Assembly: GCA_965224465.1 (NCBI GenBank)
Contig: OZ245049.1
Coordinates: 1,620,001 to 1,652,000, forward strand
DNA length: 32,000 nt
Direction of reading: 5' to 3'
Source of the DNA: Flavobacteriaceae bacterium
GTDB taxonomy: Bacteria > Bacteroidota > Bacteroidia > Flavobacteriales > Flavobacteriaceae
Shown here: positions 2,913 through 32,000 of the stretch, piece by piece
How the letters are laid out: every line of letters starts with the position of its first letter
How positions within the stretch are numbered: the stretch's first letter is position 1
The notes under the pieces: generated by a model
Databases searched by the model: none
Seen by the model: the letters and a program-made list of their open reading frames with translations, nothing else
What the model was told of the DNA's origin: nothing
Made by a program: the position numbers and the translations under genes

Positions 2913-3023
2913 GTGCTTTCCTCAGAAAAAAATCAACATTACATTTTTTGATAAATAATTGTAAAACAAAAAAAGGCACTCCTCTTCTTTCAAATCCTTA
3001 CAGCAAATGCATTTCTAAAGGAT

Positions 3024-3150
3024 ACCAATTACAATCCAAAATAACCGATATAAATAGTTTATTAACGCCCTAGCGTTGTTAAAAAACAGAACGATAGCTA
3101 ATAGGGTATCCATCCATTTCTCGCCTAGCTGGCTAAAACAAAAATTAATT
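3024..3150. repeat. Diverged copy (head plus middle) of the 161-bp repeat family, interrupted by an IS
   Basis: ACCAATTACAATCCAAAATAACCGATATAAATAGTTTATT...CTAGCGTTGTT..AGAACGATAGC..TATCC.TCCATTT.TCGCCTAGCT aligns with the units at 12831-13436. The tail resumes at 4886. Confidence 0.6.
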
Positions 3151-4885: not shown

Positions 4886-4925
4886 AATTACATTTCTAAA
4901 AACTGTCACTTGGAAATGTAGTTGA
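4886..4925. repeat. Tail segment of the repeat-family copy split by the IS at 3151-4885
   Basis: AATTACATTTCTAAAAACTGTCACTTGGAAATGTAGTTGA matches the tail consensus AATAATTCTAATTCTAAACCGTCACTTGAAAATGTAGTTGG. Confidence 0.6.
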
Positions 4926-5328
4926 TATCCCTCGCTTCTTTAATTTGTTTTTTCGACGTTTATAGAGGTGTACAGAGAAGTAATTGGAGTTTTACTGTAG
5001 AGTTTATCTATGGCAATCGTTGTATAAAACACAGGGTAGCTTCTCCCCTTTTGCGTTTGGTTTTTGTGAGGCTTGTTTATTTACTTAAAGCATGGAAGCA
5101 TTTCTTTCTAGTATTTAAAGTTTTAGAAAACAGTACAAACTGATCCACACGAAAGCCTACGGATGCAAACATCCTAAAAGCAAGCAGTTATCTATTAAGG
5201 TCTTTATCGATGACCTCTTCATAAACTTCGCGCAATCCCCATAGCATCATCTTTTGAATCGATATCATCAACATGATGTTTATGCTGGGCGCTACGCACT
5301 GCACGAACACTTAGTTATTAGGTGTAGT

Positions 5329-5649: not shown

Positions 5650-5751
5650 TACTTAAATTCAACTAATAAACGCAACTTTTCGATTTGATTCTATGATGGT
5701 TATATTTTCAAAACAGAAAAGTAGGAAAACCTACCTTTCTTGTCTTGATGG

Positions 5752-6978
5752 CAGGGCAAACTCATACTATTTTTAAGTTAATTTCATTGAATTTAAGTTG
5801 CTTACCTCGTTAATTATCAGTATATTATGTTGATAATTAGATAGGTAACGATATGAATTCAGACAGTAAAATAATGAGTATTTTTGGCAATATAGAAGAC
5901 CCTAGAAGCGATATAAACAAGTTACACAACTTGGTTGACATCCTCCTTATTGGGATAATTTCAGTCATTTGTGGAGCAGAAACATGGAAACAAATGGTTG
6001 AGTTTGCTTGTTCAAAAGAAGGTTTTTTAAGGAAATTTCTACAATTACCAAATGGAATACCATCAGAAGACACTATTAACAGGGTATTCTCGTCGATAGA
6101 CAGTTCTCAGCTTGAAACATGTTTCATAGAATGGGTCAATTCTATTTCAACTATATCAAAAGGGCAGGTAATAGCTATTGATGGAAAAGCGCTTAGAGGA
6201 GCAAAATCAAATGGAAAAAAATCACCTGTACATATGGTGAGCGCATGGGCTGATCAAAACAATTTAGTTTTGGGTCAAATTAGAGTCAATGAAAAATCTA
6301 ATGAGATAACTGCGATCCCGGAATTACTTGATACTTTGTGTATAGAAGGCAATATAATTACAATAGACGCAATGGGAACTCAAACTGATATTGCGGATAA
6401 GATTATAAAAAATGATGCCAATTACATACTTGCCGTAAAGGGAAATCAAAAACAACTACTAGAGGAAATAAAGGACGAATTCAAATTCTCAAAAAACATA
6501 GAAATAGATACAGACTTTGACCTTGGTCATGGAAGAATTGAAACTAGAAAATGTAGCGTAATTTCTGATTTTCAATTTATTAAGAACGCAGATAATAAAT
6601 GGAATAAGTTGACTCAAGTTATAAAAATAGAAAGTATAAGGGAGTTCAAAAACAGTGATAAACAAACAGAAAAGGCAACTAGATATTACATTTCTAGCTT
6701 AAAAGATACCGCTGTAAATCATCAAAGTCATATTCGTTCTCATTGGGGTGTAGAGAATAAATTACATTGGACATTGGATGTTGCATTCTCAGAGGATGCC
6801 TCTAGAAAAAGAAATAAAAATGCAGCTCAAAACTATTCAATACTATTGAAAATTGCCCTGAATCTATTGAGAAACGAAAAAACGGAGAAACAAGGTATTG
6901 CTGGAAAAAGACTTAAAGCAGGCTGGAATCAAGCATATCTGTTAAAAGTATTAAGCATTAAAGTGTGAGTTTGCCCTG
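5752..6978 (+). mobile_element. ISAs1-family insertion sequence (1227 bp) nested in the left end of IS30 copy 1
   Basis: Inverted repeats CAGGGCAAACTCA (5752) and TGAGTTTGCCCTG (ending 6978). A perfect 10-bp target duplication GTCTTGATGG sits at 5742-5751 and 6979-6988. The uninterrupted target is visible in IS30 copy 2. Confidence 0.9.
5853..6968 (+). CDS. ISAs1-family (H-repeat-associated type) DDE transposase
   Basis: N-terminal FGNIEDPRS...HNLVDILLIGIISVICGAETWKQMVEF and C-terminal IRSHWGVENKLHWTLDVAFSEDASR are hallmark ISAs1 transposase segments. 371 aa. Confidence 0.9.
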   Translation: MNSDSKIMSIFGNIEDPRSDINKLHNLVDILLIGIISVICGAETWKQMVEFACSKEGFLRKFLQLPNGIPSEDTINRVFSSIDSSQLETCFIEWVNSISTISKGQVIAIDGKALRGAKSNGKKSPVHMVSAWADQNNLVLGQIRVNEKSNEITAIPELLDTLCIEGNIITIDAMGTQTDIADKIIKNDANYILAVKGNQKQLLEEIKDEFKFSKNIEIDTDFDLGHGRIETRKCSVISDFQFIKNADNKWNKLTQVIKIESIREFKNSDKQTEKATRYYISSLKDTAVNHQSHIRSHWGVENKLHWTLDVAFSEDASRKRNKNAAQNYSILLKIALNLLRNEKTEKQGIAGKRLKAGWNQAYLLKVLSIKV

Positions 6979-7029
6979 GTCTTGATGGATATGTATCTTA
7001 CGGTCTCAAATCTCGAAAAAAGAAGTTGT

Positions 7030-7986
7030 ATGAAACACATCACCCAAGCGCAAAGATACACAATTTGTTGCATGTTAAAACAAGGTTATAAACAGGTTGA
7101 GATAGCAGCTGCTATAGGAAAAGACAAGTCTGTTATTAGCAAAGAGATTAAGCGTAATTCAGACAAAAGAAATGGAGTTTACAAGCATGAATTAGCCCAA
7201 AAAAAGTATGCTAAACGTCATAAAGAAAAGCCTAAAAGAAAACGCTTTACAGAAGATATTCAACAAGCAATAGAGTTGTTATTGCGAGACGATTATAGTC
7301 CTGAGCAAGTAGTTGGTGTCCTAAAAAAACAAGGTAAAGAAACGGTGTCTATTGAGCGTATATATCAGCATATTAGGGAAGACAAGAGGAATGATGGTGA
7401 TTTACATACACACCTTCGCAGACAGGGAAGGAGATATAGAAAACGTGGCTCATCAAAGGATTCTAGAGGGGTTATAAAGAATCGTATTAGTATAGAACAA
7501 CGCCCTGAAGTTGTTGAACAAAGAAATCGATTTGGAGATTTAGAGGTCGATTTAATCATAGGTAAAAACCATAATCAAGCCATACTTACCGTAAATGATA
7601 GAGCTTCTGGAATGCTTAAAATGAAAAAAGTAAGCTCTAAAGAAGCAGTTGTTGTCACTAAAGCTATCAATGAAATATTAGAAGACTGGAAGCCTTATCT
7701 ACATACTATAACAGCTGATAATGGAAAAGAATTTGCAGGCCATGAGCAGGTTGCAGAAAATTTATGTATTGATTACTTTTTTGCGCATCCATATCACTCT
7801 TGGGAAAGAGGATCTAACGAAAATTTAAATGGTTTGATTAGACAATATTTTGCCAAAGGAAGTGACTTTACAAACCTAACAGATCAAAGAATCAAAGAGG
7901 TAGAAACAAAATTAAATAACAGACCTAGGAAGAGACATAAATATCAAAACCCTATATTTGTAATGGAACAATTATTATTTAACTAA
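7030..7986 (+). CDS. IS30-family DDE transposase (copy 1)
   Basis: HTH-like N-terminus MKHITQAQRYTICCMLKQGYKQVEIAAAIGKDKSVISKEIKRN and DDE core DLIIGK...ITADNGKEF...YHSWERGSNENLNGLIRQYFPK-like. The ORF track begins at an upstream TTG (6982), but ATG 7030 matches the usual IS30 start. Confidence 0.9.
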   Translation: MKHITQAQRYTICCMLKQGYKQVEIAAAIGKDKSVISKEIKRNSDKRNGVYKHELAQKKYAKRHKEKPKRKRFTEDIQQAIELLLRDDYSPEQVVGVLKKQGKETVSIERIYQHIREDKRNDGDLHTHLRRQGRRYRKRGSSKDSRGVIKNRISIEQRPEVVEQRNRFGDLEVDLIIGKNHNQAILTVNDRASGMLKMKKVSSKEAVVVTKAINEILEDWKPYLHTITADNGKEFAGHEQVAENLCIDYFFAHPYHSWERGSNENLNGLIRQYFAKGSDFTNLTDQRIKEVETKLNNRPRKRHKYQNPIFVMEQLLFN

Positions 7987-8008
7987 AAGTTGCGTTTGTG
8001 ACTTGAAT

Positions 8009-9475
8009 TCAGCTTACCTGAATATATAAATTTCTCATTTGAGTGGTAAATCCATTTTTCACGTGAACAAAGTATAATGTATTATTTTTATGAACTAGAA
8101 TATCACACAATTCGATATTATCTTCTAAAATTTTATCCAAAACTAAATAATTGTTTTGGTCATGACTTTTGTTATAAGTGTCTTCATCCCAATCTTTTTC
8201 CCATTGATTTAACGATATTCCTGAGAGTTCGTTCTGTTTATAAGTGTTTATTGCATCTTTATTTACTCTTTCTAAGAATTTATTTTCTAAATAATACCAT
8301 TTAGCATCAATCCTAAAATATTTTTTTGTCAGATAAGTTCTTTCACAGACTATATGAGAATAAAAATGACCAAAAGTCGAATCTTTTTCACTAATTACAC
8401 CAATTATATCTAAATCAAAAAGTTTTGATTTTATTTCAGTTTTATCCGTTATGCTCTTAAGACTGTTATATATATGTTTCGTGCATTCAAAGTACAAATC
8501 CTCTTTATCTGTAACAATCCTGTCATTTTTACTCCTAGTCTTTTTAAATCTAACTTTAAATTTATCACACTCATAGAATTTCTCTAACTTTTTCGGATTA
8601 ATGACCTCTATAATTCCTTGTTTAATTTTATATAATTCTTGAGGAGAATTATGTAATATTACATCAATTACTAATTCATCTTTAAGCCCATTATCTAACT
8701 CTGTTATTAAAGAACTATCGTCTATTTTTGAGAATAAAGTTAATTGAACATAATTTGACTTATCTGACCTAATTATTTGAATATCTTTAATTAATTCTTT
8801 AAGTTCTTCAAAATTTAATTTCTTTTTGAGAGCAAAGTATGAACCTATTTCCATTATTGATTTAACCTTGTCAAGGTCATATTTTTTGAAAATACCATTT
8901 TTTAGTTCTTCTCGAACTAATATCTTAAGTTTTTTCGGGATTTCAGAATATTCAAGAGATTCACTAATTCTTTGGTCATAGGTATAAGTATTATCCTTTT
9001 CCGAGATATTACTTGCAACACCTCTTGTTTGTACTTTAAGTAGTATATCTTCTTCAGGTTTTGCAAAATGCTGATAAAAATCAATACCAAAATTAGTATC
9101 AATAAATGCTTGAATAACATTAAAACCACTTCCTCCAACTGAGCAAAAAATATCGCCATTGTGTATCGAAAATAAAACAAAAGAGAATTCTACTATTTCA
9201 AAATTTTGATTTTCAATCAACTCATCAGGCAGAAATAATTCCCAGTAATCTTGTGTTTTAGGCTGATTGAAGCAATAAGTGTAAAATTCAAAATCTACTT
9301 CAGAAGAATGATTTAAGGATGGTTTGACAATATTAACATCTGTTTCTTCTGCGTATAAAGCCTTTTTATGATTGCCTCTTATATGCTCTATGATTTCTTT
9401 ATTGGTTTTACCTTTGAAGAAAAATAAGCTTTTGTCAATGAGAAAAATTTTTAAATTGAATCTTGTTTTATTCAT
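8009..9475 (-). pseudogene. N-terminal 487 codons of a TIGR04141/DUF6119-like protein, truncated by IS30 copy 1
   Basis: The ORF runs into the IS30 right end, and its last codon and its stop are IS-derived. The N-terminal LKIFLI.. segment and the C-terminal LYFVHVKNGFTTQMRNLYIQV segment resemble the family's conserved HVK...Q region. The family assignment is from memory, not from a search. Confidence 0.7.
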
Positions 9476-9697
9476 TGACGTGCTTTTTTTAATTACAGGT
9501 AACGTTTAGCTAAGCGCAGTACGGATTAGAAAGTACGGACTTTCAAGCTTGCACTTAGCCAAAGCTTTTTATTTTGTTTTATCTTTTTTATTGTAAAGCC
9601 AAATCAAAAGATTTGGCGGTCTTCGTTAAATGTACTGAACTTCGACATAAAAAACAAACCCGTATTGCGTTTAGGTACTGTTGTACAACGTATTACT

Positions 9698-10468
9698 CTA
9701 TAGGTCATTTACTAACAACTTAAATTCCTCAATTTTATAAAGTCCAGACTGTATAATTCGTTTATCAAATCCCATTTTGCGCGTTTCGATTTTTCTCTTT
9801 TCATATTCAACTTTATCCATTCTTGGGTCAAATACAATTTCATCAATTAATTCACTTGGATTTATATATAATTTAAAAACGTTTCCATTAGCATTTGGGT
9901 CTTGATTTCCATTATACATAAGCCTTACTTCGTTTTCGTGTCTAAATGCCCATCTTTTAAAATAAAAAGTGGATGCTTGTCCCCAACCACTTTGGTCATA
10001 AATTTTTCCACTCATCTTTTCTCTATCTGAAAGCATTTCTATTAAGGTTTTTTTGCCTTTATATTTTACTTTTCCAATAAAGGACTTTAAGTTGTACTCG
10101 TTTCCGTTCATTTTGTTATGAACACCACCTAATTCAAATAATGGGTTGAACAATTTTCGTAATGTAGTTTTTACTTTTACGCCATTTTTTTCTGGCGAGT
10201 AAATTCTCCACATAGCATCACTTTCTTTTGTGAGTGACCAACATTGTCCATAGAAACTATCTCTATTTCCAATAGTGAATTCTCGTCCGTCAGGCAATGT
10301 TCCTGTTGAATTCAATATGAAATTTTCAAAAGGGTCTTCCCAAAGCCTCGGTTTAACTAAAGCTAGTTTCTTTTCTTGAAAAAGTTCTTGTAATCTCGAA
10401 AAGCTAAAAATTCGATAAACATTTTTATCAAGTTCTTCATCTGTCAGAAATATTAAATTGTCATTCAT
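9698..10468 (-). CDS. DUF2971-family protein
   Basis: 256 aa. VYRIFSFSRLQELF..., EDPFE, YGQCWSLTKESDAMWRIYSPEKNGVKV and KRWAFRHENEVRL match the pattern I recall for DUF2971 (acidic-Pro-Phe-Glu box, MW..Y box, E.E.R box). Confidence 0.6.
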   Translation of the reverse strand: MNDNLIFLTDEELDKNVYRIFSFSRLQELFQEKKLALVKPRLWEDPFENFILNSTGTLPDGREFTIGNRDSFYGQCWSLTKESDAMWRIYSPEKNGVKVKTTLRKLFNPLFELGGVHNKMNGNEYNLKSFIGKVKYKGKKTLIEMLSDREKMSGKIYDQSGWGQASTFYFKRWAFRHENEVRLMYNGNQDPNANGNVFKLYINPSELIDEIVFDPRMDKVEYEKRKIETRKMGFDKRIIQSGLYKIEEFKLLVNDL

Positions 10469-10853
10469 TGGTTTTTTTCAGGTATGTTGTACAACACCCC
10501 TACATCCACAATAACAAGCCAAAACTTGACGTTATTTCCGTAATAGCTACAATAGCGGTGTGCTTACTTTTATTTTTAAATCCGCTATATATGGAATACA
10601 GCGTTCTTCAAATATACAAAAGACATCCTTTCAGCACACTACCCTTTTAATAATTTTTTAGAAAAGTTTTCAAGCATTAACTTCTGTTTTTCAGAACCTC
10701 AACAAGAGTACTAGTTCTTAGCCTAAACGTGGTGTTTTAAGATTAGATAGCATCGTTATTTTCAGGGGGAACAATTAGGCGTATTTAGTAGTTCTCAAGC
10801 GTTTACACCAATTACTTTTCCATATTCAACGTTGCTTGTATTTATTTAAGGTC

Positions 10854-10893
10854 AAAAAAAAAGCCCTTGAACGTATTGTCCAAGGGCTTTTTT
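10854..10893. terminator. Bidirectional Rho-independent terminator-like hairpin
   Basis: AAGCCCTTG-N11-CAAGGGCTT flanked by an A9 run upstream and a T6 run downstream. On the minus strand it lies about 108 nt after the GH20 remnant. Confidence 0.6.
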
Positions 10894-11001
10894 ACAGTCA
10901 ATAACCACGGGCAAGCCCACGAGGCATGAAAAAGAAAAAACCTTAATTATTTCGATGCAAGCATCGGGGAATTAAACCTACTGGTGGGATTAAAAATGAA
11001 T

Positions 11002-11221
11002 TTATTTTTCTTCAAACGTATGCGTTGCATAGTCCAACCTCAAGGCAACGTACATTTCTATTAAAGACAGTAGACGTTCACTAAAATTGTTCCAATATTT
11101 CCCATTTCCAGGCGACCAAACAACTTCTGACAAGGCAGACATACGCGGTAAAATCATATATTCTACATCATCTGTAGTTGCCATATATTCAGCCCATACA
11201 TTTGATTGAGCCCCTAAGATC
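11002..11221 (-). pseudogene. C-terminal remnant of a GH20 beta-N-acetylhexosaminidase
   Basis: The minus-strand frame reads ILGAQSNVWAEYMATTDDVEYMILPRMSALSEVVWSP..., which is the conserved C-terminal end of the GH20 catalytic domain. No upstream part of the gene is present. Confidence 0.6.
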
Positions 11222-12191
11222 TATTTTTGATCCGTTGGTATTACTACTTAGAATCAAAAGGATCAAGAAAAAATGTAAAAATGCATGTCTGATTTTACGA
11301 ACTAAAAAAACCACCTATTTTCATAGGTGGATATTCACTTATTTTAAGACCAATTAAAATAATAAACGGACCAATTATTAATTAAAATATCCGTTTTTTG
11401 TTGATATCGTTGTCTCTAAGCTTACAAAATGTTCAAACACATTTACGAAACCTTAAAAACCATATACAGAACCTCAACTTTTTAAAAAAAACTAACGCTG
11501 TATCGTATACATAACTACTTAAACCCATATTTAGTATTTGTATGCTCTAAATGCAAAAAGACTAAAACCACTCACTCGATTCTAATTTCAGAAAAATAAT
11601 TTAAACACATCTACAATACCTATTCTTGACACCTGCTTTTTTACAACATCATCTTTAAAACAAATACTATAGGGAAAGAAGAATTAAGGGAAAGGGATAC
11701 CTATTAACAATAGTGTTTACATACACTTTGTTTGAAGAGAAAATTTAAAAAAAATGACCTGCAGGTCTGGAAAATCGGGAAAATTAATTTATATCTTTAG
11801 TTCTAATTATACAGATGAATCAGCTGCTATTACAACCTATTATTTTAAAATTTAATGTCAAATTAATATTTAATTTTGACACTGCAAAAATACAACGAAA
11901 AAACAAATAACACAAGTTAATTTCACCATTTAATTAAAAAAACAAGCCGTTTGTACAATAAAACAAGCACTCAAACGATTGAGTAAGGCTAAAAAAAAAT
12001 GAGTTATAATTGAAATTCAAGCCCTCAATTCTTAATTATCTAAAAAAAGAAGTGAACCACAACAAGAAAAGCACTTTTTTAACAGGAATTCGAACACTTT
12101 CAAATTATCCCCTAGCAAACGAAACACACAAATAACAGGTCTTTTTAACGATACTTACTAATAAATTGTATTTTTGAATAAAAAAGACACT

Positions 12192-12737
12192 ATGAAAAGT
12201 ATACTTACAAGCCTCGCTATGTTCTTCTGTGCCTCCATTTCTTTTGCACAAAGCAATTCTGATTATCTAAAAATAATCATAGATGGAAAACCTGCATTTA
12301 TGCATGTAACTACAGGAATGGTGACCTACAATTTAGAAACCCATCCTAAAGACAGTGCAATTCATCAAAAAAGCAGCAATCAAGATCCAAGATTAAATGC
12401 CGATAAATTTCACCGTGTTGAACCTGGAGACACCTATTATGGTATTTCAAAAAAACATGGTATTTCTTTAGATCAATTATTAGATTGGAATCAAACATCT
12501 TTAAACACCGTATTATCTGTAGGGAAAATATTAAAAACGTCTCCAACAGTACCCTTCTCATCTATTACAAATACATACAGTCCCAACAGCATCAAAGAAA
12601 AAACACATACTGTGTTAAAGGGCGAAACTTTATATAATATTTCAAAAAGATACGGATTAACCATTCAGCAGTTAAAGTCAAAAAACAATTTAAAAGAAAC
12701 TTTAATTTCAATTGGTCAGACCTTATATATTGACTAA
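12192..12737 (+). CDS. Secreted protein with two LysM domains
   Basis: Signal peptide MKSILTSLAMFFCASISFAQ and two LysM repeats (HRVEPGDTYYGISKKHGISLDQLLDWN..., HTVLKGETLYNISKRYGLTIQQLKSKN...). I prefer ATG 12192 to the upstream TTG 12174 of the ORF track. Confidence 0.85.
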   Translation: MKSILTSLAMFFCASISFAQSNSDYLKIIIDGKPAFMHVTTGMVTYNLETHPKDSAIHQKSSNQDPRLNADKFHRVEPGDTYYGISKKHGISLDQLLDWNQTSLNTVLSVGKILKTSPTVPFSSITNTYSPNSIKEKTHTVLKGETLYNISKRYGLTIQQLKSKNNLKETLISIGQTLYID

Positions 12738-12752
12738 TATTTAAAAACAAGT

Positions 12753-12792
12753 ATCTCCCAAGAGCACTAAGTCTGCTTGGGAGATTTTTTTT
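12753..12792 (+). terminator. Rho-independent terminator of the LysM gene
   Basis: ATCTCCCAAG-N13-CTTGGGAGAT followed by a T8 run. Confidence 0.75.
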
Positions 12793-12830
12793 GACACTGT
12801 TTTTAAGTGAATCTATCAGAATTGACCATT

Positions 12831-13436
12831 GCACCAATTACAATCCCAAATGACAGATATAAATAGTTTATTTTATGTTCTAGCGTTGTTGAAAAATAGA
12901 ACGATAGCGAAGGCTATCCTTCCATTTTTCGCCTAGCTAGAATAAAAAATAATTCTAATTCTAAACCGTCACTTGAAAATGTAGTTGGTGCTGCACCATT
13001 ACAATCCCAAATGACAGATATAAATAGTTTATTTTATGTTCTAGCGTTGTTGAAAAATAGAACGATAGCGAAGGCTATCCTTCCATTTTCCGCCTAGCTA
13101 TAATAAAAAATAATTCTAATTCTAAACCGTCACTTGAAAATGTAGTTGGTGCTGCACCATTACAATCCCAAATGACAGATATAAATAGGTTATTTTATGT
13201 TCTAGCGTTGTTGAAAAATAGAACGATAGCGAAGGCTATCCTTCCATTTTCCGCCTAGCTATAATAAAAAATAATTCTAATTCTAAACCGTCACTTGAAA
13301 ATGTAGTTGGTGCTGCACCATTACAATCCCAAATGACAGATATAAATAGTTTATTTTATGTTCTAGCGTTGTTGAAAAATAGAACGATAGCGAAGGCTAT
13401 CCTTCCATTTCCCGCCTAGCTAGAATAAAAAATAAT
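12831..13436. repeat. Tandem array of a 161-bp non-coding unit (about 3.8 units); the fourth unit is interrupted by IS1595
   Basis: The marker CTGCACCAT recurs at 12991, 13152 and 13313, giving a 161-bp period. Units are nearly identical, and no ORF of 60 aa or more lies on either strand. Confidence 0.9.
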
Positions 13437-14424
13437 AGGGTTACCTATTTAAATCTCACTAATATTTTGTTTTTCTGAAAGGATTTTTTACTTTTAGAAA
13501 AAGAAAGCTATGAAAATATTAAAAGAATTATCTCGTAAAGAATTTCACACTAAGTTTGGAGAAGAGAGTTTATGTTTATCTTTTTTATCATCTGTAAAAT
13601 GGGAAGAAGGTTTTTCCTGTTTTAAATGTAAAAACACAAAGTTTTTAAAAGGAAAAAGAGCGTATAATAGACGTTGTACAAAATGCGGATATGATGAGTC
13701 TCCAACTGCGAACACTCTATTTCATAAAGTTAAATTTGGTATTGTAGAAGCCTTTGAAATGACTTATGATATAGTTACCAGTAAGAAAGGAGCGAATAGT
13801 ATTTGGTTAGCAGAAAGGCACGGTGTTAAACAGATGACAGCTTGGTTGTTTAGAAGAAAAGTACAAGAAGCAATGAAAAGTAGTGAGAAATATCCTTTAG
13901 AAAAAGAAGTTCATGTAGACGAGTTTGAAATAGGTACACCAAAAAAAGGAGAGCAAGGACGTAGTAAATCAGCTACTAAAATTAGAGTTGTAATTGCCAT
14001 TGAAAATAGAAATGGTAAACCAGGCAGAGCATACGCAAAGGTGATAGAAGATTATAGTTGCAAATCATTAAAACCAATATTTGAGAAACATATAAAGTTT
14101 GATGCCAATATAGTTACAGATGGCTGGTCAGGATATAAACCTTTAAAAAAGAACTTCCCAAATTTAACACAAATATTATCTAATAATGGTGAGAATTTTA
14201 AGATGCTACATTTTCAGATAAGAAACTTTAAAAATTGGTTAAGAGGCGTTCATTCGTATTGTGAGAAAGAGTATATAAATCAATACATTCAAGAGTATTT
14301 CTATCGATTTAATCGACTCAATTTTAGAGAAAACATCTTAGAAAACCTACTAAAAAGAATGTGTAAAGAAAAACCAATAACCTATAAATCAATCAAATAT
14401 ATTGCGACTTAAGAGGGTAACCCT
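13437..14424 (+). mobile_element. IS1595-family insertion sequence (988 bp)
   Basis: Ends AGGGTTACC (13437) and GGTAACCCT (ending 14424). The direct repeat AAAAAATAAT sits at 13427-13436 and 14425-14434, and this sequence occurs only once in uninterrupted repeat units. Confidence 0.85.
13510..14412 (+). CDS. IS1595-family transposase (N-terminal zinc ribbon plus ISXO2-like DDE domain)
   Basis: CxxC...CxxC zinc ribbon (CFKCKNTKF...RRCTKCGYDES) followed by VHVDEFEIG...IVTDGWSGY, typical of IS1595/ISXO2-like transposases. 300 aa. Confidence 0.9.
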   Translation: MKILKELSRKEFHTKFGEESLCLSFLSSVKWEEGFSCFKCKNTKFLKGKRAYNRRCTKCGYDESPTANTLFHKVKFGIVEAFEMTYDIVTSKKGANSIWLAERHGVKQMTAWLFRRKVQEAMKSSEKYPLEKEVHVDEFEIGTPKKGEQGRSKSATKIRVVIAIENRNGKPGRAYAKVIEDYSCKSLKPIFEKHIKFDANIVTDGWSGYKPLKKNFPNLTQILSNNGENFKMLHFQIRNFKNWLRGVHSYCEKEYINQYIQEYFYRFNRLNFRENILENLLKRMCKEKPITYKSIKYIAT

Positions 14425-14527
14425 AAAAAATAATTCTAATTCTAAACCGTCACTTGAAAATTTAATTGGTAGAATAAAAAATAATTCCTTTTCTAAAACG
14501 TGACTTGGAAATGTAGTTGGTGTTACA
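14425..14527. repeat. Remainder of repeat unit 4 (tail) plus a tail-only partial unit
   Basis: AAAAAATAATTCTAATTCTAAACCGTCACTTGAAAATTTAATTGGT is followed by AGAATAAAAAATAATTCCTTTTCTAAAACGTGACTTGGAAATGTAGTTGGTGTTACA. The last bases overlap the stop codon (14523-14525) of the convergent gene. Confidence 0.8.
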
Positions 14528-16103
14528 ATAAATCTCCACAAACTTTAACTTTCAATTTCAGAGCTCCAGGCAGGTACGCCAATGGGGAGGATTCTTTAAT
14601 CAATACTTGAATACTCTCGGGCACCGCTCCTTGATCTATTAAGTACTGAGTAGTTTTTGCTTGTAAAGTATCCATTCCACTTTGTTCATTTTGAGAAGAA
14701 GTATGTATTACAATTTCTTCTGTACTACTAATTTGAGCAATACAAGCTCCAAAGGCATTTGCAACCTCCATATGTTCTAAAAACAATACTTCTGATGCTC
14801 CCAAAATATTCTTTGGCAAAAGAAAAGCTCCTCCTCCACAAGCGATTACAGGAATATCTACCGCTTCTGTTTTTAACTTATCAACTAATTTTTCTATCTC
14901 CGATTGGAGTATTAATTTTACATGTTGTAATGCATCAGCATAGGAAACAGGCGTTATTTGATCAATCTTTTCTTTTAAAGTTGTCTGATCTAGAGCATTC
15001 CCTATAACTAACTGACCTTCCGCAATAAAAAAATCAGAAAGCGTCAATGTATCACCTCCAAAAGCAAGTGCTTGTTTCTTAAGTCTATAACCAACCGAAT
15101 CTGGTCCTAAAGTACAAACACCATTTACAAATCGGACAAAAGTACCACCACCTATACCTACGGAGACTACATCAGGCATTCTAAAATTGGTCAATACACC
15201 ACCAATCTGAGATGGCTTGGTACTTTCCCTTGGAAAAAACTGAACCAACACACCCCCATCAGAAGTGGTTCCACCAACATCTATTACAATTCCATTTGCA
15301 ACTTTAGACAAAGCTCCTGCACCACGTATGCTATTTGTGGGACCCGAAGAAATAGTAAGTACTGGAAAATCTTGAGCTTGTTTTAAAGACATTAACGTCC
15401 CATCATTCTGCCCTATAAATAATTGAGCATTCAAGCCTAAACACGCCACTGTTTCTTTAAACGCCTTTACCATTTTGGTTGCCACTCCTTGAAGTGATGC
15501 ATTTAAAATGGTTGCATTTTCACGTTCTAACAATCCCAATCCCCCTATTTGATAAGAACAACTTATTTTTACTTGCTCTCCTAAAATTTCTTGTGCCCAT
15601 GCTGCAACTTGTAGTTCTTGATCAGGGCAAATTTTAGAAAAAACCCCTGTGATCGCAAGGGAATCTATGTGTCCTTTCATTTTAAGTAAACAAGCCACGA
15701 CTTCCTCTTTATCAAGAGTACTTATTGGATCCCCATCAAACTCATAGCCTCCATGTACCATATACAAACGACCTCCAAGTAATTGCTTCAAGTCCTCAGG
15801 GAAATCACACATCATTGAAACAGCGCTACTTGCTGGTAAACAAATTCGCAATGCACCAATAGCATTCAATTCTTTGCGTTCCACCAATGCGTTTGTACAA
15901 TGGGTAGTCCCTAACATAATGTATTTTACACTTTCTTTAGGTATCTTTGTTTTTCTTAGAATATATTGAATCGCATTTTGAATACCAGTACTCACATCTA
16001 ATGTAGTTTCTTTTTTAACTTTTGCAATAATCTTATTGTTTTGATTTACTAACACGGCATCTGTATTTGTTCCTCCTACATCGATTCCTATTTTATAATA
16101 CAT
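14523..16103 (-). CDS. Hydantoinase/oxoprolinase-family protein (HyuA-like, the type usually paired with DUF917)
   Basis: The N-terminal IGIDVGGTNTDAVLV ATPase (ASKHA-type) motif and a second DVGGTTSD motif. 526 aa. The start overlaps the upstream DUF917 gene by 11 nt. Confidence 0.8.
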   Translation of the reverse strand: MYYKIGIDVGGTNTDAVLVNQNNKIIAKVKKETTLDVSTGIQNAIQYILRKTKIPKESVKYIMLGTTHCTNALVERKELNAIGALRICLPASSAVSMMCDFPEDLKQLLGGRLYMVHGGYEFDGDPISTLDKEEVVACLLKMKGHIDSLAITGVFSKICPDQELQVAAWAQEILGEQVKISCSYQIGGLGLLERENATILNASLQGVATKMVKAFKETVACLGLNAQLFIGQNDGTLMSLKQAQDFPVLTISSGPTNSIRGAGALSKVANGIVIDVGGTTSDGGVLVQFFPRESTKPSQIGGVLTNFRMPDVVSVGIGGGTFVRFVNGVCTLGPDSVGYRLKKQALAFGGDTLTLSDFFIAEGQLVIGNALDQTTLKEKIDQITPVSYADALQHVKLILQSEIEKLVDKLKTEAVDIPVIACGGGAFLLPKNILGASEVLFLEHMEVANAFGACIAQISSTEEIVIHTSSQNEQSGMDTLQAKTTQYLIDQGAVPESIQVLIKESSPLAYLPGALKLKVKVCGDLL

Positions 16104-17190
16104 GGTGCGTTTTTTTATTTAACAATTCAATAGGTACATAATCTTCTTTATAGCCAAACTTCTGAGGACCTCCCAAGGCTATACCTTCTGGGGTTCTCCA
16201 CTGTTGATCTGATTTCATTCCCAAAACAACAACTCGAGTTCCATAAGCAATGGTTTCGGCTGTAATAGGCAACCCGTTTTCAGCATCAATCAAAACAATT
16301 AAATCGGGAGTGATTGCTACAGGTATCCCATTTTTTTTCGCCATTAGAAACTCGTTTTGAAAATCCATAGTTAGTTGACTCCCATCATCCGTGCCCAATC
16401 CAGTAATTTCACAAGTCCCTTTATTCCAACGCCCATCAATTTTTATGGACACCTTACTTACTTTACCCGTAAATAATTCAATAGCGTCCGCCGCTTTTAT
16501 AAGGGCTTCAACAGGATTCTCTCCTTTTGATTTTGCATTCAAAACAGCATTTCCTAAATTTTGAGCGAATGTCACGACTCCTTTTACCGCAGCTTTTTTT
16601 ACTTCTTTTCCTGTCATCGGGTAACACCCCAAGGCACAACTACCACCCATTTTAATTGCCGTAGCCCCCACAAGAGTTTCTCCCCATACATTATCTATCG
16701 TATCATATATATTTTTATTCCCTTTTTCATCTGCTTGAGTAATGGGAGATGCGGAAATACCGTGCAAGGTAAATGTCACCATTTCTAACCTTGGAAACGC
16801 CCGTCCCATTCCGTCTGCGTCTAACAAAGGAATTCTTTTTTCTGCTGCAAGCCCAAAGGGTATCACTCCATTGATGCCTCCTGCTTCGATAGGTATCAAT
16901 GCATCTATTTTTTTATTAAGGTACTTTTCCATCATCTCAAAAGCATTTAAAAATTCAATACCAGAAAAAAGTTTTTCTAGCAAAATCATTGGAGCACCAA
17001 AGGCAGCAATCGCAACAATTAAAGCATCATCATCCAACTCATCTGTTGTTATCAACCGAACATCTCCATACGTTTCAATCGCGTGTTTGGCTACTAATTT
17101 ACCCACATAAGGATCGCCACCACCTCCAGTCCCCAATATTGTAGCTCCCAAAGAAATGGCATCTAAATCTTGTTTTTTAATTCGTCTCAT
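16093..17190 (-). CDS. DUF917-family protein
   Basis: The N-terminal LGATILGTGGGGDPYVGKL motif is characteristic of DUF917. 365 aa. The start overlaps the upstream permease gene by 14 nt. Confidence 0.8.
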   Translation of the reverse strand: MRRIKKQDLDAISLGATILGTGGGGDPYVGKLVAKHAIETYGDVRLITTDELDDDALIVAIAAFGAPMILLEKLFSGIEFLNAFEMMEKYLNKKIDALIPIEAGGINGVIPFGLAAEKRIPLLDADGMGRAFPRLEMVTFTLHGISASPITQADEKGNKNIYDTIDNVWGETLVGATAIKMGGSCALGCYPMTGKEVKKAAVKGVVTFAQNLGNAVLNAKSKGENPVEALIKAADAIELFTGKVSKVSIKIDGRWNKGTCEITGLGTDDGSQLTMDFQNEFLMAKKNGIPVAITPDLIVLIDAENGLPITAETIAYGTRVVVLGMKSDQQWRTPEGIALGGPQKFGYKEDYVPIELLNKKTHHVL

Positions 17191-18394
17191 CGCTCGTTTT
17201 TTTTAGTTGCTGAATTATTCCATATACTATTGCAGCTACTACAATCCCCAATACATATTTTATTTCTGAAGACATAAATAGCATTATTAAGACACCAATA
17301 CCCCATGAAAAAATTCCTACCCAATTAAATTTCTCTGTATTTTCTTTAAATGTTTTTGAGATATAAAAATCAGAAATCATAACTCCTGCAATGGGTGTAA
17401 TGGTAATTGTTAATATATTAATAAAGCTGGTAAAGCTCGATAACACGCCAATTGCAGCAATAATAACACCTACCAAACCAACAAGTAACGTAGTTTTGGA
17501 ACGTGCATCATTTTTAAGACTAAAAAGATTTAGAAAGGCCAATCCTGAGGAATATATATTCATAACATTAGACGTCCAAGTAGCAAGAATAAGTATGGAC
17601 ATGGCTAAAAAAGGAAAGCCTAAGGAGGAAAATATTTCCACAATATCATAGGTAGATTGTGTAATTGCAAAAACAGCTCCAATTGCCAACAAACATAATG
17701 CGGAAGGTATCACCCCTATAATAGACCCTAAAACAGCATCCTTTTTTGTAGCGGCAAAACGGTTATAATCTGGAGAGATTACACCTCCCACCGATATAAA
17801 ACCAATTGTAAATCCTATTGCTCTAAAAATAGACATGTTATTTTCTGGAACAAAATTTAAAATATCCTGAAAACTATGTGTTTGAAATGTGATTACCAAA
17901 CCATAGGCAAGTAAAAGTATAATCCCAGGTACAGCAAGATAATTAAGCCATTTTAAATATTTAAAACCAAAAACAGAGGTAGTCACCATAATTACCCCCC
18001 AAAAAACAGAGGATATCCAAACGGGAATTTCTGTACCATTAATTTCAACTATTATTTTTGAGAACGATACTCCTGCTATATTAGTTTGAATCCCAAACCA
18101 GCCCAAGGTGGATAAGCCAATAACCAATCCTACAATAATTTTAGCGCCTAATTCTCCAAAACTGCTGGAGGCTAATGAGACTGTTGTCATTCTTTTTTCT
18201 ACAGCAGCAATGCTCAATAAAGACATGAAAAACACCACAAAACAAAAGCCTATTAAGCCCACAAAAAGGGCCTTATAAAAAGTAAGCGAAGCAATTAATG
18301 TACTTCCTATCAATAAGGCAGGTATACTAACAATTCCCCCAAACCAAATACTAGCAAGACTATACCATTTGGTCGTATATTTTTCTGTTTCCAT
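17177..18394 (-). CDS. NCS1-type purine/cytosine (nucleobase-cation symporter) permease
   Basis: 405 aa, about 12 hydrophobic segments. The N-terminal WYSLASIWFGGIVSIPALLIG resembles CodB-like permeases. Confidence 0.75.
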   Translation of the reverse strand: METEKYTTKWYSLASIWFGGIVSIPALLIGSTLIASLTFYKALFVGLIGFCFVVFFMSLLSIAAVEKRMTTVSLASSSFGELGAKIIVGLVIGLSTLGWFGIQTNIAGVSFSKIIVEINGTEIPVWISSVFWGVIMVTTSVFGFKYLKWLNYLAVPGIILLLAYGLVITFQTHSFQDILNFVPENNMSIFRAIGFTIGFISVGGVISPDYNRFAATKKDAVLGSIIGVIPSALCLLAIGAVFAITQSTYDIVEIFSSLGFPFLAMSILILATWTSNVMNIYSSGLAFLNLFSLKNDARSKTTLLVGLVGVIIAAIGVLSSFTSFINILTITITPIAGVMISDFYISKTFKENTEKFNWVGIFSWGIGVLIMLFMSSEIKYVLGIVVAAIVYGIIQQLKKTSDETN

Positions 18395-18397
18395 AAT

Positions 18398-18721
18398 TTA
18401 TTGTTTAATTAAGGTATACATAAGACGAGTATCTTCCAATACATTTCCAGCCTGCGCCTCCAATGCTTTTATATACACCACATCTCCTGCATGTAAATAC
18501 CCTTTTACTGTTCCATCCTCAGAAAGCATTTCTATTTTCCCTTCCTGAATAACAGATATTTCATGACTTGGATTTTTAGTAAAACCTTGAGCAGGAATAC
18601 GTGTTCCTTTTTTTAGAAATACCGTCCCGAATTGAAATTCTACCTGTTTGTTTGTGATGTGAAAAAGCAATTTATTATAATGCTCTTCAGGAGACGGATA
18701 GGTAATTTTCTTTTTGTTCAT
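18398..18721 (-). CDS. Small cupin-domain protein
   Basis: 107 aa with a cupin-like core (G..IP...HSHE-like PSHEISVIQEG....G..V.I). It ends 3 nt before the permease start. Confidence 0.55.
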   Translation of the reverse strand: MNKKKITYPSPEEHYNKLLFHITNKQVEFQFGTVFLKKGTRIPAQGFTKNPSHEISVIQEGKIEMLSEDGTVKGYLHAGDVVYIKALEAQAGNVLEDTRLMYTLIKQ

Positions 18722-18769
18722 CCTCTTATCTATTTGTGTATTTATAATTTAAACAGCCCTCTCTTTCCG

Positions 18770-19564
18770 TTACTTAACAATGATTCTATTTCCGAAAACT
18801 TCTGCTTCAGAAAACAACGAAAATTGTTTCAACTCGACTTCCAAAGGACCTTTACAACTCCATTTACGGGAAGGCTTCCATCCATAATTATTTTTAAGCA
18901 TTGCGGCTTGCTCCGCCTGTTTAAGCGCTGCTAATGAAGGATCTATTACAGGCACGTCTAGTGCTTCCTGTAATTTTCTGTAAAATCCAAACTCAAGTGT
19001 ACAGCCCAAAATTATAGCTTCCGCACAATCATCTTGAATTGCTTTTTTTGCAGCTTCCATCAACTTTTGAGCGGTTACTTCATGGTCTTTTTGAAATTCC
19101 GTAACAGACATATCTACACTTCTAAACGATGCCAGTTGCGCTTCGTAGCCGTATTCTTTAATGGTCGTGTGCATTTCGTGTTCCCATTTCTTTTGCCCTA
19201 TGATTACAGAAAATTTATTCGACAATTTTAAGGCGATTTCGATCGAGGATTGGCAAGGACCTAAAACCACCATCTCACCAGATATCTCACGTGCAGCCAA
19301 CAATAAAGGATCGTAAAAACAACCAATAATCATCGCATCAAACCCTTCTTCAGCAGCACGCCTTGTCGCTTTAATTAGCGCTGAGGAAATCAATGCATTA
19401 TAAGTTCTATACTCCAAATTATCCATCAATCCAACACTGGAAGGAAGGGAAGCTACATGCACTTCCGTTCCTTCCAATTTTTCTTTTCGAAACATCTCGG
19501 CAAAAAATGCATCATAGGTATTGAACCCAACGGGATTCAAATACAATATTTTCACAGTACCCAT
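18770..19564 (-). CDS. Asp/Glu/hydantoin racemase-family protein
   Basis: 264 aa. IIGCFYDP and IILGCT segments are placed like the two catalytic Cys boxes of hydantoin/Asp-Glu racemases. The start overlaps the hyuB stop by 1 nt. Confidence 0.7.
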   Translation of the reverse strand: MGTVKILYLNPVGFNTYDAFFAEMFRKEKLEGTEVHVASLPSSVGLMDNLEYRTYNALISSALIKATRRAAEEGFDAMIIGCFYDPLLLAAREISGEMVVLGPCQSSIEIALKLSNKFSVIIGQKKWEHEMHTTIKEYGYEAQLASFRSVDMSVTEFQKDHEVTAQKLMEAAKKAIQDDCAEAIILGCTLEFGFYRKLQEALDVPVIDPSLAALKQAEQAAMLKNNYGWKPSRKWSCKGPLEVELKQFSLFSEAEVFGNRIIVK

Positions 19565-21231
19565 TATACATTTAAATTATAGAATTCTTTTGCCTCTTCC
19601 TTGCTGATATATCCGTTTTTAACATCCAACAGCACTTGCTCTTTATTCCTGTTTTTAGGCGCACCATATCCACCACCAGTTGCCGTAACACAACGTACAA
19701 TATCTCCTTTTTCTAAATAAATATTAGTCCCCAAACAATGCCTTGTTTTAGTCCCATCCTTTTTTCTGATTTGAAAATAGTTATAAGAACCATCATGTCC
19801 TCCATTCATTCCCCATGTTTTGGTTTTCTCCCCTAAAAAAGCTGCTGTTAGGTAGGCGCCATCAGACATAATTTTATAATCTAAATACTGTCCACTCCCT
19901 CCTTGAAACTCACCATAACCACCCCCTTCATTATGAAAGGCATATTGTTCTACTTGAATTCCATACCGCATTTCTCTAATTTCGATCGGAATGTTGTAGG
20001 ACTCTCCACTCCCACAGGATAGTTGCCCTCTGTTTCCGTCGTGGGTCGCAGCAGCACCCCAGCCACCAGCCAATGGTTCTGCCTGAATGTAAAATTGCCC
20101 TGTATCTGGATGGGTTCCAGAAATAAAAGTGGCGCAAACCGATCTCATGTGTCCCGCAGGTAATTTATCTGGAATTAATGGCGCCAATATCTTCCATATC
20201 AAATCGATGGAAGTAATCAGTACTTCATAGTAGACTGATACTGCCGAAGGTGCTTGTGCACTCACAATAGTTCCTGGATCACAAAGCACCTTCATCGGTC
20301 TAAAAGCCCCTCCATTTGCATCCATTTGTGGAGTGGTAATGGCTTTAAATAAACTCCTACAACCAGTCACCAATCCACTATAAGACAAATTTGTTGCTCC
20401 TTTAACTTGCGGGTGTGACCCATTAAAATCTGCAATAAACTCTGTATCCGTAACTGTAATTGTTGCTTTTATAGGAAAAGGTCCCTCTCCGAAACCATTA
20501 TCCTCAATTATTGATTCTCCTTTATAAACACCATTTGGAATCTCTTTTAAAGCTTCAATACACATGCGTTCACCATACGCTAAAAAATCAAGTATCGCTT
20601 TTTTATAAATTGATAAACCATATTTATCAATAATAGATATCACCCGTTTTGCGCCCACTTCTGCGGCCGCAATCCCCGCATACAAATCACCTAATGTACT
20701 GTCTGGTAAACGTACATTCACTTTAATCAAATCTACAATAGCATCATTTATAACACCTTCTGACTTAATTTTGATAAAAGGAAAATGCAATCCTTCTTGG
20801 TAAATTTCTGTAGCAACGGTAGATACCGACCCAGGAAACGTCCCTCCAAGTTCTGTCCAGTGAGCTTTATTCACCGTAAAAGCCACCAATTCTTTTTTAT
20901 AAAAAACAGGGTAGATAATAGAAACATCTGAAAGATGCGTACCACCACCAGCATAGGGCGTATTCGCAATTACAATATCGCCTTCTTTTAGAGCCCTATC
21001 GCCTGTAAATTTTTCTAATGTAGCAGTAACCACAGCGTCCAAAGCAGCTAAAAATGCAGTAACACCATTTCCTTGCGCCAATAACTCTCCGCGTATATTT
21101 GTGATTCCTACAGCATAATCCAAGGATTCATAAATAATAGGACTCATACTGGTACGCTCCATAGTCTTAAACATCTCATCTCCTGCTGCCACAAGGGCAT
21201 CCTGAATTATTTCTAAGGTAAATTTTTCCAT
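19564..21231 (-). CDS. hyuB: Hydantoinase B / 5-oxoprolinase B-type subunit
   Basis: The N-terminus LEIIQDALVAAGDEMF...MERTSMSPIIYESLDYAVG is typical of the Hydantoinase_B family. 555 aa. The start overlaps the hyuA stop by 1 nt. Confidence 0.85.
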   Translation of the reverse strand: MEKFTLEIIQDALVAAGDEMFKTMERTSMSPIIYESLDYAVGITNIRGELLAQGNGVTAFLAALDAVVTATLEKFTGDRALKEGDIVIANTPYAGGGTHLSDVSIIYPVFYKKELVAFTVNKAHWTELGGTFPGSVSTVATEIYQEGLHFPFIKIKSEGVINDAIVDLIKVNVRLPDSTLGDLYAGIAAAEVGAKRVISIIDKYGLSIYKKAILDFLAYGERMCIEALKEIPNGVYKGESIIEDNGFGEGPFPIKATITVTDTEFIADFNGSHPQVKGATNLSYSGLVTGCRSLFKAITTPQMDANGGAFRPMKVLCDPGTIVSAQAPSAVSVYYEVLITSIDLIWKILAPLIPDKLPAGHMRSVCATFISGTHPDTGQFYIQAEPLAGGWGAAATHDGNRGQLSCGSGESYNIPIEIREMRYGIQVEQYAFHNEGGGYGEFQGGSGQYLDYKIMSDGAYLTAAFLGEKTKTWGMNGGHDGSYNYFQIRKKDGTKTRHCLGTNIYLEKGDIVRCVTATGGGYGAPKNRNKEQVLLDVKNGYISKEEAKEFYNLNV

Positions 21232-31930: not shown

Positions 31931-32000
31931 TTATTTAACTAAAAGTTGCGTTTGTGACTTGAATTCAGCATATCGCCTAACTCATCAATATCTTCTCCTT

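Follow-up and report, generated by a model that had tools for sequence, protein, structure and literature searches.

The 161-bp tandem repeat at positions 12832-14522 of the window (the 32-kb stretch of DNA analyzed here) is best read as a locally amplified copy of a non-coding, hairpin-shaped MITE of about 159 bp that generates a TTA/TAA target duplication, a reading to which we assign a probability of roughly 0.8. The element has terminal repeats, 3-bp direct repeats at its flanks, dispersed copies, deletion derivatives, and no coding capacity. At 158-159 bp, the unit falls within the range of MITEs, which are non-coding and shorter than about 600 bp. The family is common to the window’s organism and to related MAGs from the North Pond aquifer, and it occurs in a small group of marine Flavobacteriaceae. 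It has not been described previously; the kind of element is well known, and it does not represent a new kind of system.

A preliminary description of the locus had reported about 3.8 tandem copies with a 161-bp period, and TRF returned the same values (12830-13436, period 161, 3.8 copies, 98% matches, score 1170). A repeat search of the window found 278-nt copies at a spacing of 161 nt and an identity of 98-100%. The sequence details given in that description are likewise present, namely the marker CTGCACCAT at 12991, 13152, and 13313, the quoted head and tail strings with their 19-of-25 end complementarity, the unit junction GGTGC-T-GCACC, the internal motifs GTTCTA-N14-TAGAAC and GATAGC-GAAG-GCTATC, and the listed differences between units. 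The claim that the interval 12831-14527 holds no open reading frame, however, proved wrong, as an element of the IS1595 family (transposase 13510-14412) lies inside it and splits unit 4. Since unit 4 resumes beyond this insertion, the array consists of four complete units plus an extra 51-bp tail rather than of 3.8 units.

Each unit comprises 158-159 bp followed by the 3-bp spacer CTG. Along the plus strand, the array begins after the left flanking triplet TTG (12829-12831), the counterpart of TTA at the right flank with two of the three bases equal. Unit 1 (12832-12990, 159 bp, CACCAATTAC...GTAGTTGGTG) is separated from unit 2 (12994-13151, 158 bp) by the spacer at 12991-12993, and the same spacer recurs at 13152-13154 and 13313-13315, on either side of unit 3 (13155-13312, 158 bp), which differs from unit 2 at one base. 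The head and centre of unit 4 occupy 13316-13435, and its tail (14434-14471, ...AATTTAATTGGTA), which has diverged further than its counterparts in units 1-3, follows on the far side of the insertion. Next comes the extra tail-only copy, a duplicate of the 51-bp tail (14472-14522, plus strand; TRF period 51, 1.9 copies, 82%), whose GTTGGTG end directly abuts TTA at 14523-14525. Read on the minus strand, this triplet is the TAA stop codon of a hydantoinase A-like gene (14523-16103, minus strand), and it doubles as the target triplet on the right flank. Identity among units 1-4 is 98-100%, their CTG spacers are the same, and the two inner units are most alike. The LysM gene has a strong terminator of its own at approximately 12755-12795.

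The IS1595-family element that interrupts unit 4 is a later insertion and lies outside the MITE proper. It spans 990 bp (13436-14425, plus strand; PF12762 and PF12760), has the ends TAGGGTTACC... and ...GGTAACCCTA, and is bordered by an 8-bp target duplication, AAAAATAA, at 13428-13435 and 14426-14433. A comparable nesting is found elsewhere in the window. Diverged or partial relatives had been placed at 3024-3150 plus 4886-4925, at 27219-27296, and at 14471-14527, and all were recovered by repeat and profile searches, with no further copies detected in the 32-kb window by the profile search. The first two pieces are a single solo copy (copy A), the head and centre of which (3023-3150, plus strand, about 80% identity to the array units) are parted from its tail (4890-4927, plus strand) by a 1735-bp IS with a DUF772 and DDE_Tnp_1_2 transposase (IS1182/IS5-like; 3151-4885, plus strand, ORF 3282-4850). 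This IS has inverted repeats within 3141-3166 and 4870-4895 and a 4-bp duplication, AATT, at 3147-3150 and 4886-4889. Copy C (27219-27291, plus strand) is an internally deleted derivative of 73 bp in which a short AAATA repeat marks the fusion of head and tail, with TGA and TTA as flanks. The element therefore occurs at three loci of the window. Preferential targeting of the MITE by IS elements was considered and rejected: two of about five IS insertions lie in MITE DNA, which is not significant (chance of about 0.24, a rough estimate in which MITE DNA makes up about 19% of the intergenic sequence that tolerates insertion).

Beyond the window, ten solitary full-length relatives are located at unrelated intergenic sites on different contigs of four North Pond aquifer MAGs, namely Flavobacteriaceae NORP129, NORP150, and NORP167 as well as NORP351, which is labelled Labilibaculum. 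The dispersed copies include six on six contigs of NORP150 and two in NORP129. Two copies at different loci of one MAG share 97% identity (L003 and L006), whereas coding sequence in these MAGs differs from that of the window by about 15%. Two subfamily copies carry an extra 23-nt insert. A further pair (L001 and L010) represents orthologous filled sites, at which the element has diverged about as much as its flanks and a 23-nt indel has been tolerated. Taken with the TTA/TAA repeats at the ends and the 73-bp deletion derivative, the ten solitary copies and the 97% identical pair bear out the earlier proposal of a MITE-like non-autonomous element. Matches to Paceibacterota (L008) and Xenorhabdus (L009) in the scan of genome contigs were dismissed as chance, as were all four metagenome-contig matches to the head pattern, which lie within coding sequence. 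The unit had no BLASTN match in plasmid or phage collections.

The FolC and hydantoinase neighbourhoods identify the NORP MAGs as the closest relatives of the window’s organism, a member of the Flavobacteriaceae whose nearest named genus is Lutibacter. In the closest relative (L017), the element is absent past the hydantoinase stop codon, where homology ends; because the DNA downstream is unrelated, this is not a clean empty site. No empty site was obtained through the relatives’ contigs with FolC, hydantoinase, or the 413-aa protein. The relatives’ contigs end before the other two sites, at tRNA-Val repeats or other repeats, and the search of relatives found no close homolog of the 413-aa protein.

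The flanks of the copies indicate how the element moves. Perfect 3-bp direct repeats (TTA/TTA or TAA/TAA) abut the inverted-repeat ends at 6 of 12 loci, or at 7 loci when the ortholog L001 is counted with corrected coordinates, and at four more loci the flanking triplets are equal at two of three bases. At control offsets of 3, 6, and 9, no matches were seen (0 of 12). All perfect duplications are TTA or TAA (i.e., TWA), and since the flanking repeats are direct and not inverted, they are not an extension of the palindrome. The flanks and spacers of the array (TTG, CTG, and TTA) show no perfect TWA duplication, and copy A has none. The ends themselves are imperfect inverted repeats that measure about 25 bp (TACCAATTACAATCCAAAATAACCG ... 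CGGTCACTTGGAAATGTAATTGGTA), and the terminal pairing is kept in all copies, the ends of the array units being complementary at 19 of 25 positions. A 3-bp TWA duplication is the signature of a MITE moved by a DDE transposase, as in Tourist/IS5-type elements, and we regard the present element as derived from a DDE-type insertion sequence. The same duplications bear on the idea that the repeat is a REP/REPIN-type palindrome whose single-stranded DNA hairpins are mobilized by a RAYT (Y1/HUH) transposase. Such an origin would account for the long imperfect palindrome of the unit and for the clustering of units and their location in intergenic 3' regions, but we consider it extremely improbable, given that REP/REPIN elements make no target duplications, that a Pfam scan of 26 window ORFs found no IS200/RAYT-type (Y1) domain, and that copies per genome are few.

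With respect to coding capacity, every unit contains a 28-aa ORF on the plus strand, the ATG of which is missing in 9 of 13 aligned copies. As most relatives lack this start codon, the ORF is not a gene, and no conserved ORF exists across copies. The imperfect palindrome extends beyond the ends to the entire unit, which can form about 55 of some 79 possible Watson-Crick pairs and folds as one long rod. The GTTCTA/TAGAAC hairpin is an alternative to this rod fold and has no independent support.

The fold is relevant to a second explanation, in which the element is primarily a structured RNA made from the minus strand at the 3' end of the hydantoinase operon, its transposon-like features being secondary. 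Each unit would then be a rod-like hairpin of about 75 bp with a role as an sRNA, as a substrate of RNase III, or in mRNA stabilisation. Consistent with this, the minus strand of the unit folds at -59.6 kcal/mol (z = -9.0), compared with -42.0 kcal/mol (z = -6.7) for the plus strand, and 14 of 15 copies fold better on the minus strand, which could mean RNA-level selection. Moreover, 96% of the cells are paired in the consensus fold, with many G-U pairs, and the array directly follows the upstream hydantoinase gene and is co-oriented with it. However, when the palindrome is aligned in a strand-neutral manner, the excess of G.U over A.C is only about 2:1 per copy (e.g., 6 versus 3), a non-significant bias, much of which goes back to a common ancestor; the argument from strand asymmetry is therefore downgraded. 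Two-sided changes affect 4 of 50 pairs, a count reached by 84 of 500 shuffles (13 related sequences, low power), orientation relative to neighbouring genes is mixed (about six copies co-oriented versus three to four opposite), and the orthologous pair L001/L010 has diverged in the element about as in the flanks, with the 23-nt indel. For the repeat, no Rfam family comes at or near its threshold: at the gathering threshold, only the three tRNA-Val genes of the window are found, and at a permissive E-value, the region 12700-14600 yields generic hairpin matches to miRNA models, the best at 31 bits against a threshold of 89. The Bacteroidetes-type promoter motif (TAnnTTTG) is absent from the consensus, as judged by eye. 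We therefore regard a primary RNA identity as unlikely, and an RNA function of any kind is conceivable but not supported. The preliminary description had held a structured RNA or a protein-binding array to be equally possible, a parity that the missing Rfam match, the mixed orientation, and the shuffling result do not sustain.

A related possibility is domestication as a signal at the DNA or transcription level, in which the element would serve between the convergent genes as an intrinsic terminator working in both directions or as an array for protein binding. The central hairpin GATAGC-N4-GCTATC is preceded by an A-rich run and followed by a T-rich one, and a terminator-like score is obtained on both strands of every unit (12 sites versus 1.0 +/- 1.0 expected). 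In addition, the copies are all intergenic, several of them just past stop codons, and the centre of the element is its best-conserved part. However, an intergenic position is expected of any tolerated insertion, and the conservation of the centre is partly a search artefact, since the pattern used to scan the genome contigs demanded AGAACGATAGC and CGCCTAGCT. The hairpin is also weak (6 bp, with three G-C pairs), its T run begins 6 nt past the stem, and the LysM gene is already served by its own terminator. We know of no binding protein or motif for the element, and we judge domestication as a signal to be very unlikely.

For the MITE reading, the source of the transposase may be narrowed by the duplication. 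As described earlier, no IS of the window has matching ends; the five IS types have other ends, and their duplications measure 4, 8, or 10 bp or are not evident. A fuzzy match of the terminal 13 and 25 nt against approximately 205 kb (the window plus related loci) returned MITE copies only and revealed no autonomous parent element. A resemblance of the MITE tail GTCACTTGAA to an IS30-like right end, GTGACTTGAA, was attributed to chance, as the matching stretch lies 12 nt inside the MITE but forms the very end of the IS. For some accepted families, Correia among them, no cognate autonomous IS is known either. Based on the TWA duplication, we presume that the transposase most likely belongs to the IS5 family (IS1031, ISL2, and IS427 groups, which are relatives of PIF/Harbinger), with IS30 as a weaker candidate.

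Tourist-like MITEs (PIF/Harbinger) and IS5-family derivatives resemble the present element in being small and non-coding, with terminal inverted repeats and a 3-bp TTA/TAA (TWA) duplication, and in having numerous copies dispersed over intergenic sites, along with deletion derivatives. The IS5 subgroups make short target site duplications. A 3-bp duplication is documented for PIF/Harbinger (PMC2213677, PMC2836001). The kinship proposed here is a candidate one drawn from the duplication. For the terminal sequence TACCAATTAC, we know of no counterpart among named ISs. We found no MITE described in the literature for this bacterial clade. Within the same phylum, MITE239, MITE700, and MITEPgRS of Porphyromonas gingivalis are also non-coding, with IS-type inverted repeats and variable copy number, and in MITEPgRS a MITE and tandem repetition occur together (PMC2575886, PMC4596501). 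The inverted repeats of the P. gingivalis MITEs, however, are common with ISPg1 and ISPg3, and the tandem repeat of MITEPgRS is internal, whereas here the whole element, with both inverted repeats and a 3-bp spacer, is repeated, and the sequences show no similarity. The Correia (NEMIS) elements of Neisseria and the enterobacterial ERIC elements are intergenic imperfect palindromes, about 100-160 bp long, that have inverted-repeat ends and no known transposase and are similar to the present element in size, ends, and location. Their co-transcription yields long RNA hairpins, and experiments have demonstrated effects of these elements at the RNA level. They differ in that Correia duplicates TA and ERIC has no consistent duplication, and both reach tens to hundreds of copies.

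The array itself most likely arose through unequal recombination or slippage. The 98-100% identity of the units, the identical CTG spacers, and the closer similarity of the inner units are the pattern expected from unequal crossing-over. It had been suggested that the element inserts next to itself. In favour of this, the 3-bp spacer has the length of the duplication, which fits one re-insertion into the flanking duplication; the part of the claim that implies repeated insertions is less well supported, as the identical spacers and nearly identical units are better explained if one junction was amplified locally. Abutted right and left ends with a 3-bp spacer are the structure that would result from insertion into an element’s own flanking duplication or from the circle or dimer junctions of copy-out-paste-in transposases. 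In (IS30)2 and in IS3-family circles, right and left inverted repeats are similarly abutted, with a spacer as long as the target duplication. Those junctions, however, are made by the element’s own transposase and are unstable, whereas here three identical junctions form a stable four-unit array of a non-autonomous element, for which unequal recombination is a simpler explanation than dimer or circle chemistry. The junction GGTG-CTG-CACC differs from GGTA-TTA-TACC by four A/T-to-G/C changes, and the palindrome is kept. That the MITE was turned into a satellite by transposition chemistry itself, possibly being also transcribed from the hydantoinase operon as a string of hairpins with an RNA-level role, seems improbable to us.

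Under local amplification, the hydantoinase-like gene would first have received one copy at its TAA stop codon, with the duplication leaving the stop intact, after which the 51-bp tail may have been duplicated. A head-to-tail junction with a 3-bp spacer would then have arisen and been amplified to four units via unequal recombination or replication slippage, and the IS1595-family element would have landed in the AT-rich part of unit 4. If the element affects its host, for instance through a long RNA hairpin or by weakly terminating transcription in both directions between the convergent genes, this would be a by-product.

Altogether, the analysis provides a defined MITE family (consensus, inverted repeats, and TWA duplication) for a little-studied clade of marine and subseafloor Flavobacteriaceae and explains three odd non-coding stretches of the window, while leaving the current understanding of transposons unchanged. 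Annotators can use the family to recognize contig breaks and small ORFs called in error. The two nested IS insertions indicate that MITE copies can serve as safe landing sites. A four-unit head-to-tail array with spacers of duplication length is unusual for a bacterial MITE, and it may help in studying how a MITE is converted into a tandem repeat.

The 161-bp repeat is real and lies well above chance expectation. Tandem Repeats Finder reports it at 12830-13436 (period 161, 3.8 copies, 98% matches, score 1170), and a repeat search of the window returns 278-nt copies spaced 161 nt apart with 98-100% identity. The marker positions, head and tail strings, 19-of-25 complementarity, GGTGC-T-GCACC junction, two small hairpins, and unit differences of the preliminary description were all found in the sequence. 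That description had noted no ORF in 12831-14527, but a 990-bp IS1595-family element sits within it at 13436-14425 (ends TAGGGTTACC and GGTAACCCTA; transposase ORF 13510-14412 with PF12762 and PF12760), flanked by the 8-bp duplication AAAAATAA at 13428-13435 and 14426-14433. Since removing this element rejoins unit 4 (13316-13435 plus 14434-14471), the array consists of four complete units and one extra 51-bp tail (14472-14522; Tandem Repeats Finder period 51, 1.9 copies). Each unit runs for 158-159 bp from a CACCA start to a TGGTG end, and the 3-bp spacer CTG is the same at every junction (158 + 3 = 161). The final tail stops right at TTA 14523-14525, the TAA stop codon (- strand) of the hydantoinase A-like gene at 14523-16103. 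Although gene callers could annotate a 28-aa + strand ORF in each unit (MTDINSLFYVLALLKNRTIAKAILPF..; 13011-13097, 13172-13258, 13333-13419, and also 12829-12936), 9 of the 13 copies aligned have ATA where its ATG start would be. It is therefore not a conserved gene. No ORF is conserved in the family.

To find relatives, one genome per species was screened with a pattern taken from the centre of the unit, yielding ten full-length solitary copies, all intergenic and each on a different contig; two further matches were rejected as chance. Nine come from the Flavobacteriaceae MAGs NORP129, NORP150, and NORP167 (six of the ten from NORP150 alone) and one from NORP351, a MAG labelled Labilibaculum. 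The inverted repeats of solitary copies terminate at TACC...GGTA, and the 3 bases outside them form direct repeats, TTA/TTA or TAA/TAA, that are perfect at 6 of 12 loci (seven with the ortholog L001 included at its corrected coordinates) and match at two of three bases at four more. At control offsets of 3, 6, and 9 bases, matching triplets occur at none of the 12 loci. Since a left TTA pairs with a right TTA and a left TAA with a right TAA, the triplets are direct repeats rather than an outward extension of the palindrome. They represent a 3-bp target-site duplication at TWA. Within one MAG, copies at two different loci (L003 and L006) are 97% identical, and the copies at L001 and L004 form a subfamily carrying an extra 23-nt insert; together with an internally deleted copy in the window, these are further signs of mobility and decay. 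Altogether, the family shows four defining features of a MITE: it is small and non-coding, ends in inverted repeats, is flanked by a duplication of fixed length, and is dispersed in multiple copies. This bears out the MITE-like reading first proposed. A search of relatives' contigs for the same sites without the element yielded no clean empty site.

A profile built from all copies detects no members in the window other than those already on the earlier list. A single copy, interrupted by a 1735-bp IS (3151-4885; DUF772/DDE_Tnp_1_2 transposase, 4-bp duplication AATT), accounts for 3023-3150 plus 4890-4927, and 27219-27291 is the 73-bp derivative with the internal deletion. A candidate lone end at 10806-10826 (CACCAATTACTTTTCCATATT), not recovered by the profile search, matches the tail repeat at 16 of 21 bases. 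It falls inside the first of two stretches of 1.3-1.5 kb (10651-12173 and 27295-28622) with no ORF of at least 60 aa and no Rfam match at gathering threshold.

How the array arose can be approached through unit divergence. Units 1-4 are mutually 98-100% identical with all three spacers alike, a single base separates the inner units 2 and 3, and the unit-4 tail and extra tail diverge by 14-19% from the unit-1 tail. From this pattern we infer that one junction was recently expanded by unequal crossing-over or slippage, and that the 51-bp tail duplication is older. Insertion of the element next to itself, as the preliminary description suggested, is plausible for one step only: the first head-to-tail junction, whose spacer has exactly the duplication length (3 bp), may be a second insertion into the first copy's flanking duplication; repeated insertion is disfavored by the near-identity of units and spacers. 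Four transitions, which may reflect selection, gene conversion, or chance, have turned the canonical GGTA-TTA-TACC at the junction into GGTG-CTG-CACC and keep the palindrome. Such whole-unit tandem arrangement is uncommon among bacterial MITEs, and known mechanisms account for it.

The preliminary description had also offered a structured RNA. The unit is an imperfect palindrome over its full length (~55 Watson-Crick pairs of ~79 possible) that folds as a single rod centred on GATAGC-N4-GCTATC, with a folding energy of -59.6 kcal/mol (z = -9.0) on the - strand versus -42.0 (z = -6.7) on the + strand. The - strand of the window is the better folder in 14 of 15 copies, and this predicted asymmetry could suggest RNA-level selection. 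However, G.U exceeds A.C mismatches only ~2:1 (each copy aligned to its own reverse complement, a strand-neutral comparison), and the consensus fold is paired in 96% of cells chiefly by invariance, with both-side changes in only 4 of 50 pairs, a count reached by 84 of 500 shuffles. The better-folding strand is oriented variably relative to neighboring genes, the element in the orthologous pair L001/L010 diverges about as much as its flanks, and no Rfam model comes close to threshold for the array. As these tests are all weak, an RNA role is possible but unsupported. Preceded by an A-run and followed by a T-run, the central hairpin is terminator-like by score on both strands of every unit. It is weak, however, and its apparent conservation is partly owed to the centre-based search pattern. 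Separately, the flanks of the orthologous insertion (L001 4300-4860 in NORP129; L010 320-860 in NORP150) contain long near-invariant non-coding stretches, e.g., GCAGCATAGCTGGTTTTGGAG.AGCAACTGCGGAG.AACTCACGAACACCCCTAAAATAAAA, that are more conserved than the element itself and could correspond to an RNA or a regulatory region not yet annotated.

As first described, the ends of the MITE match no IS type among the five in the window. Nor do these share its 3-bp duplication: the IS1595-family element has an 8-bp duplication; the IS1182/IS5-like element at 3151-4885, 4 bp; two IS30-like copies (5651-8016 and 29264-31972; HTH_38 + rve transposase), none seen; an ISAs1-like element nested in the first of these (5752-6978), 10 bp (GTCTTGATGG); and an IS701/IS4-like element (DDE_5, 477 aa) nested in the second (30359-31930), 8 bp (TTATTTAA). 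The last insertion also gives the IS30 transposase an altered C-terminal end (340 versus 334 aa). A fuzzy search for a parent IS, using 13 or 25 nt of the element's terminus against ~205 kb of DNA (window plus retrieved loci), returned MITE copies only. We take a 3-bp TWA duplication to indicate the IS5 family (IS1031, ISL2, and IS427 groups, PIF/Harbinger relatives), so that an IS5-family transposase would be the presumed mobiliser, with IS30 a weaker candidate. PIF/Harbinger elements make 3-bp duplications (PMC2213677, PMC2836001), and the three IS5 groups are present in Bacteroidota (PMC3196728). Two - strand genes at 8009-10468, adjoining the first IS30-like copy, encode DUF6119 (488 aa) and DUF2971 (256 aa) proteins and may belong to a mobile island as cargo.

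Beside the array lies a conserved - strand cluster (14523-23297) encoding hydantoinase A-like, S-Me-THD-like, cytosine/purine-type permease, Asp/Glu/hydantoin racemase, hydantoinase B, and hydantoinase A products, and a TonB-dependent receptor is encoded alongside. The cluster is syntenic with a North Pond relative. A separate short repeat family occurs at 27427-27502 and at 11653-11729 of the closest relative's contig (L017), where window and contig end share a 52-nt stretch (GCGTTAGGGATAGGAGCGGTTACCCTGCAGG...) at 96% identity beside an inverted repeat. The L017 copy sits just downstream of a hydantoinase gene, the position of the MITE array in the window, and the region has no Rfam family at gathering threshold.

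FolC identity to the NORP MAGs is 81-84%, versus 67-70% to Lutibacter, and the hydantoinase operon shares ~85-88% DNA identity with the North Pond contig; judged by these identities, no available relatives are closer to this organism than the NORP MAGs. Three identical tandem tRNA-Val(TAC) genes (2544-2879) lie directly upstream of the interrupted copy, a repeat that probably explains why related MAG and metagenome contigs all stop 37-370 bp past FolC, the gene before it. Neither a head-pattern scan of JGI metagenome contigs nor a search of plasmid and phage collections with the unit recovered the family, which appears to be clade-restricted.

In its mode of action the element is like Tourist/IS5-type MITEs, and its shape recalls that of Correia and ERIC elements. 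Its target duplications, and the lack of a RAYT-type gene among scanned window ORFs, rule out REP/REPIN identity. The closest elements described in the phylum, the Porphyromonas gingivalis MITEs (PMC2575886, PMC4596501), have known parent ISs and share no sequence with it, and no description of MITEs in Flavobacteriaceae turned up in a full-text literature search. The repeat is thus a new family of an already known kind of element.
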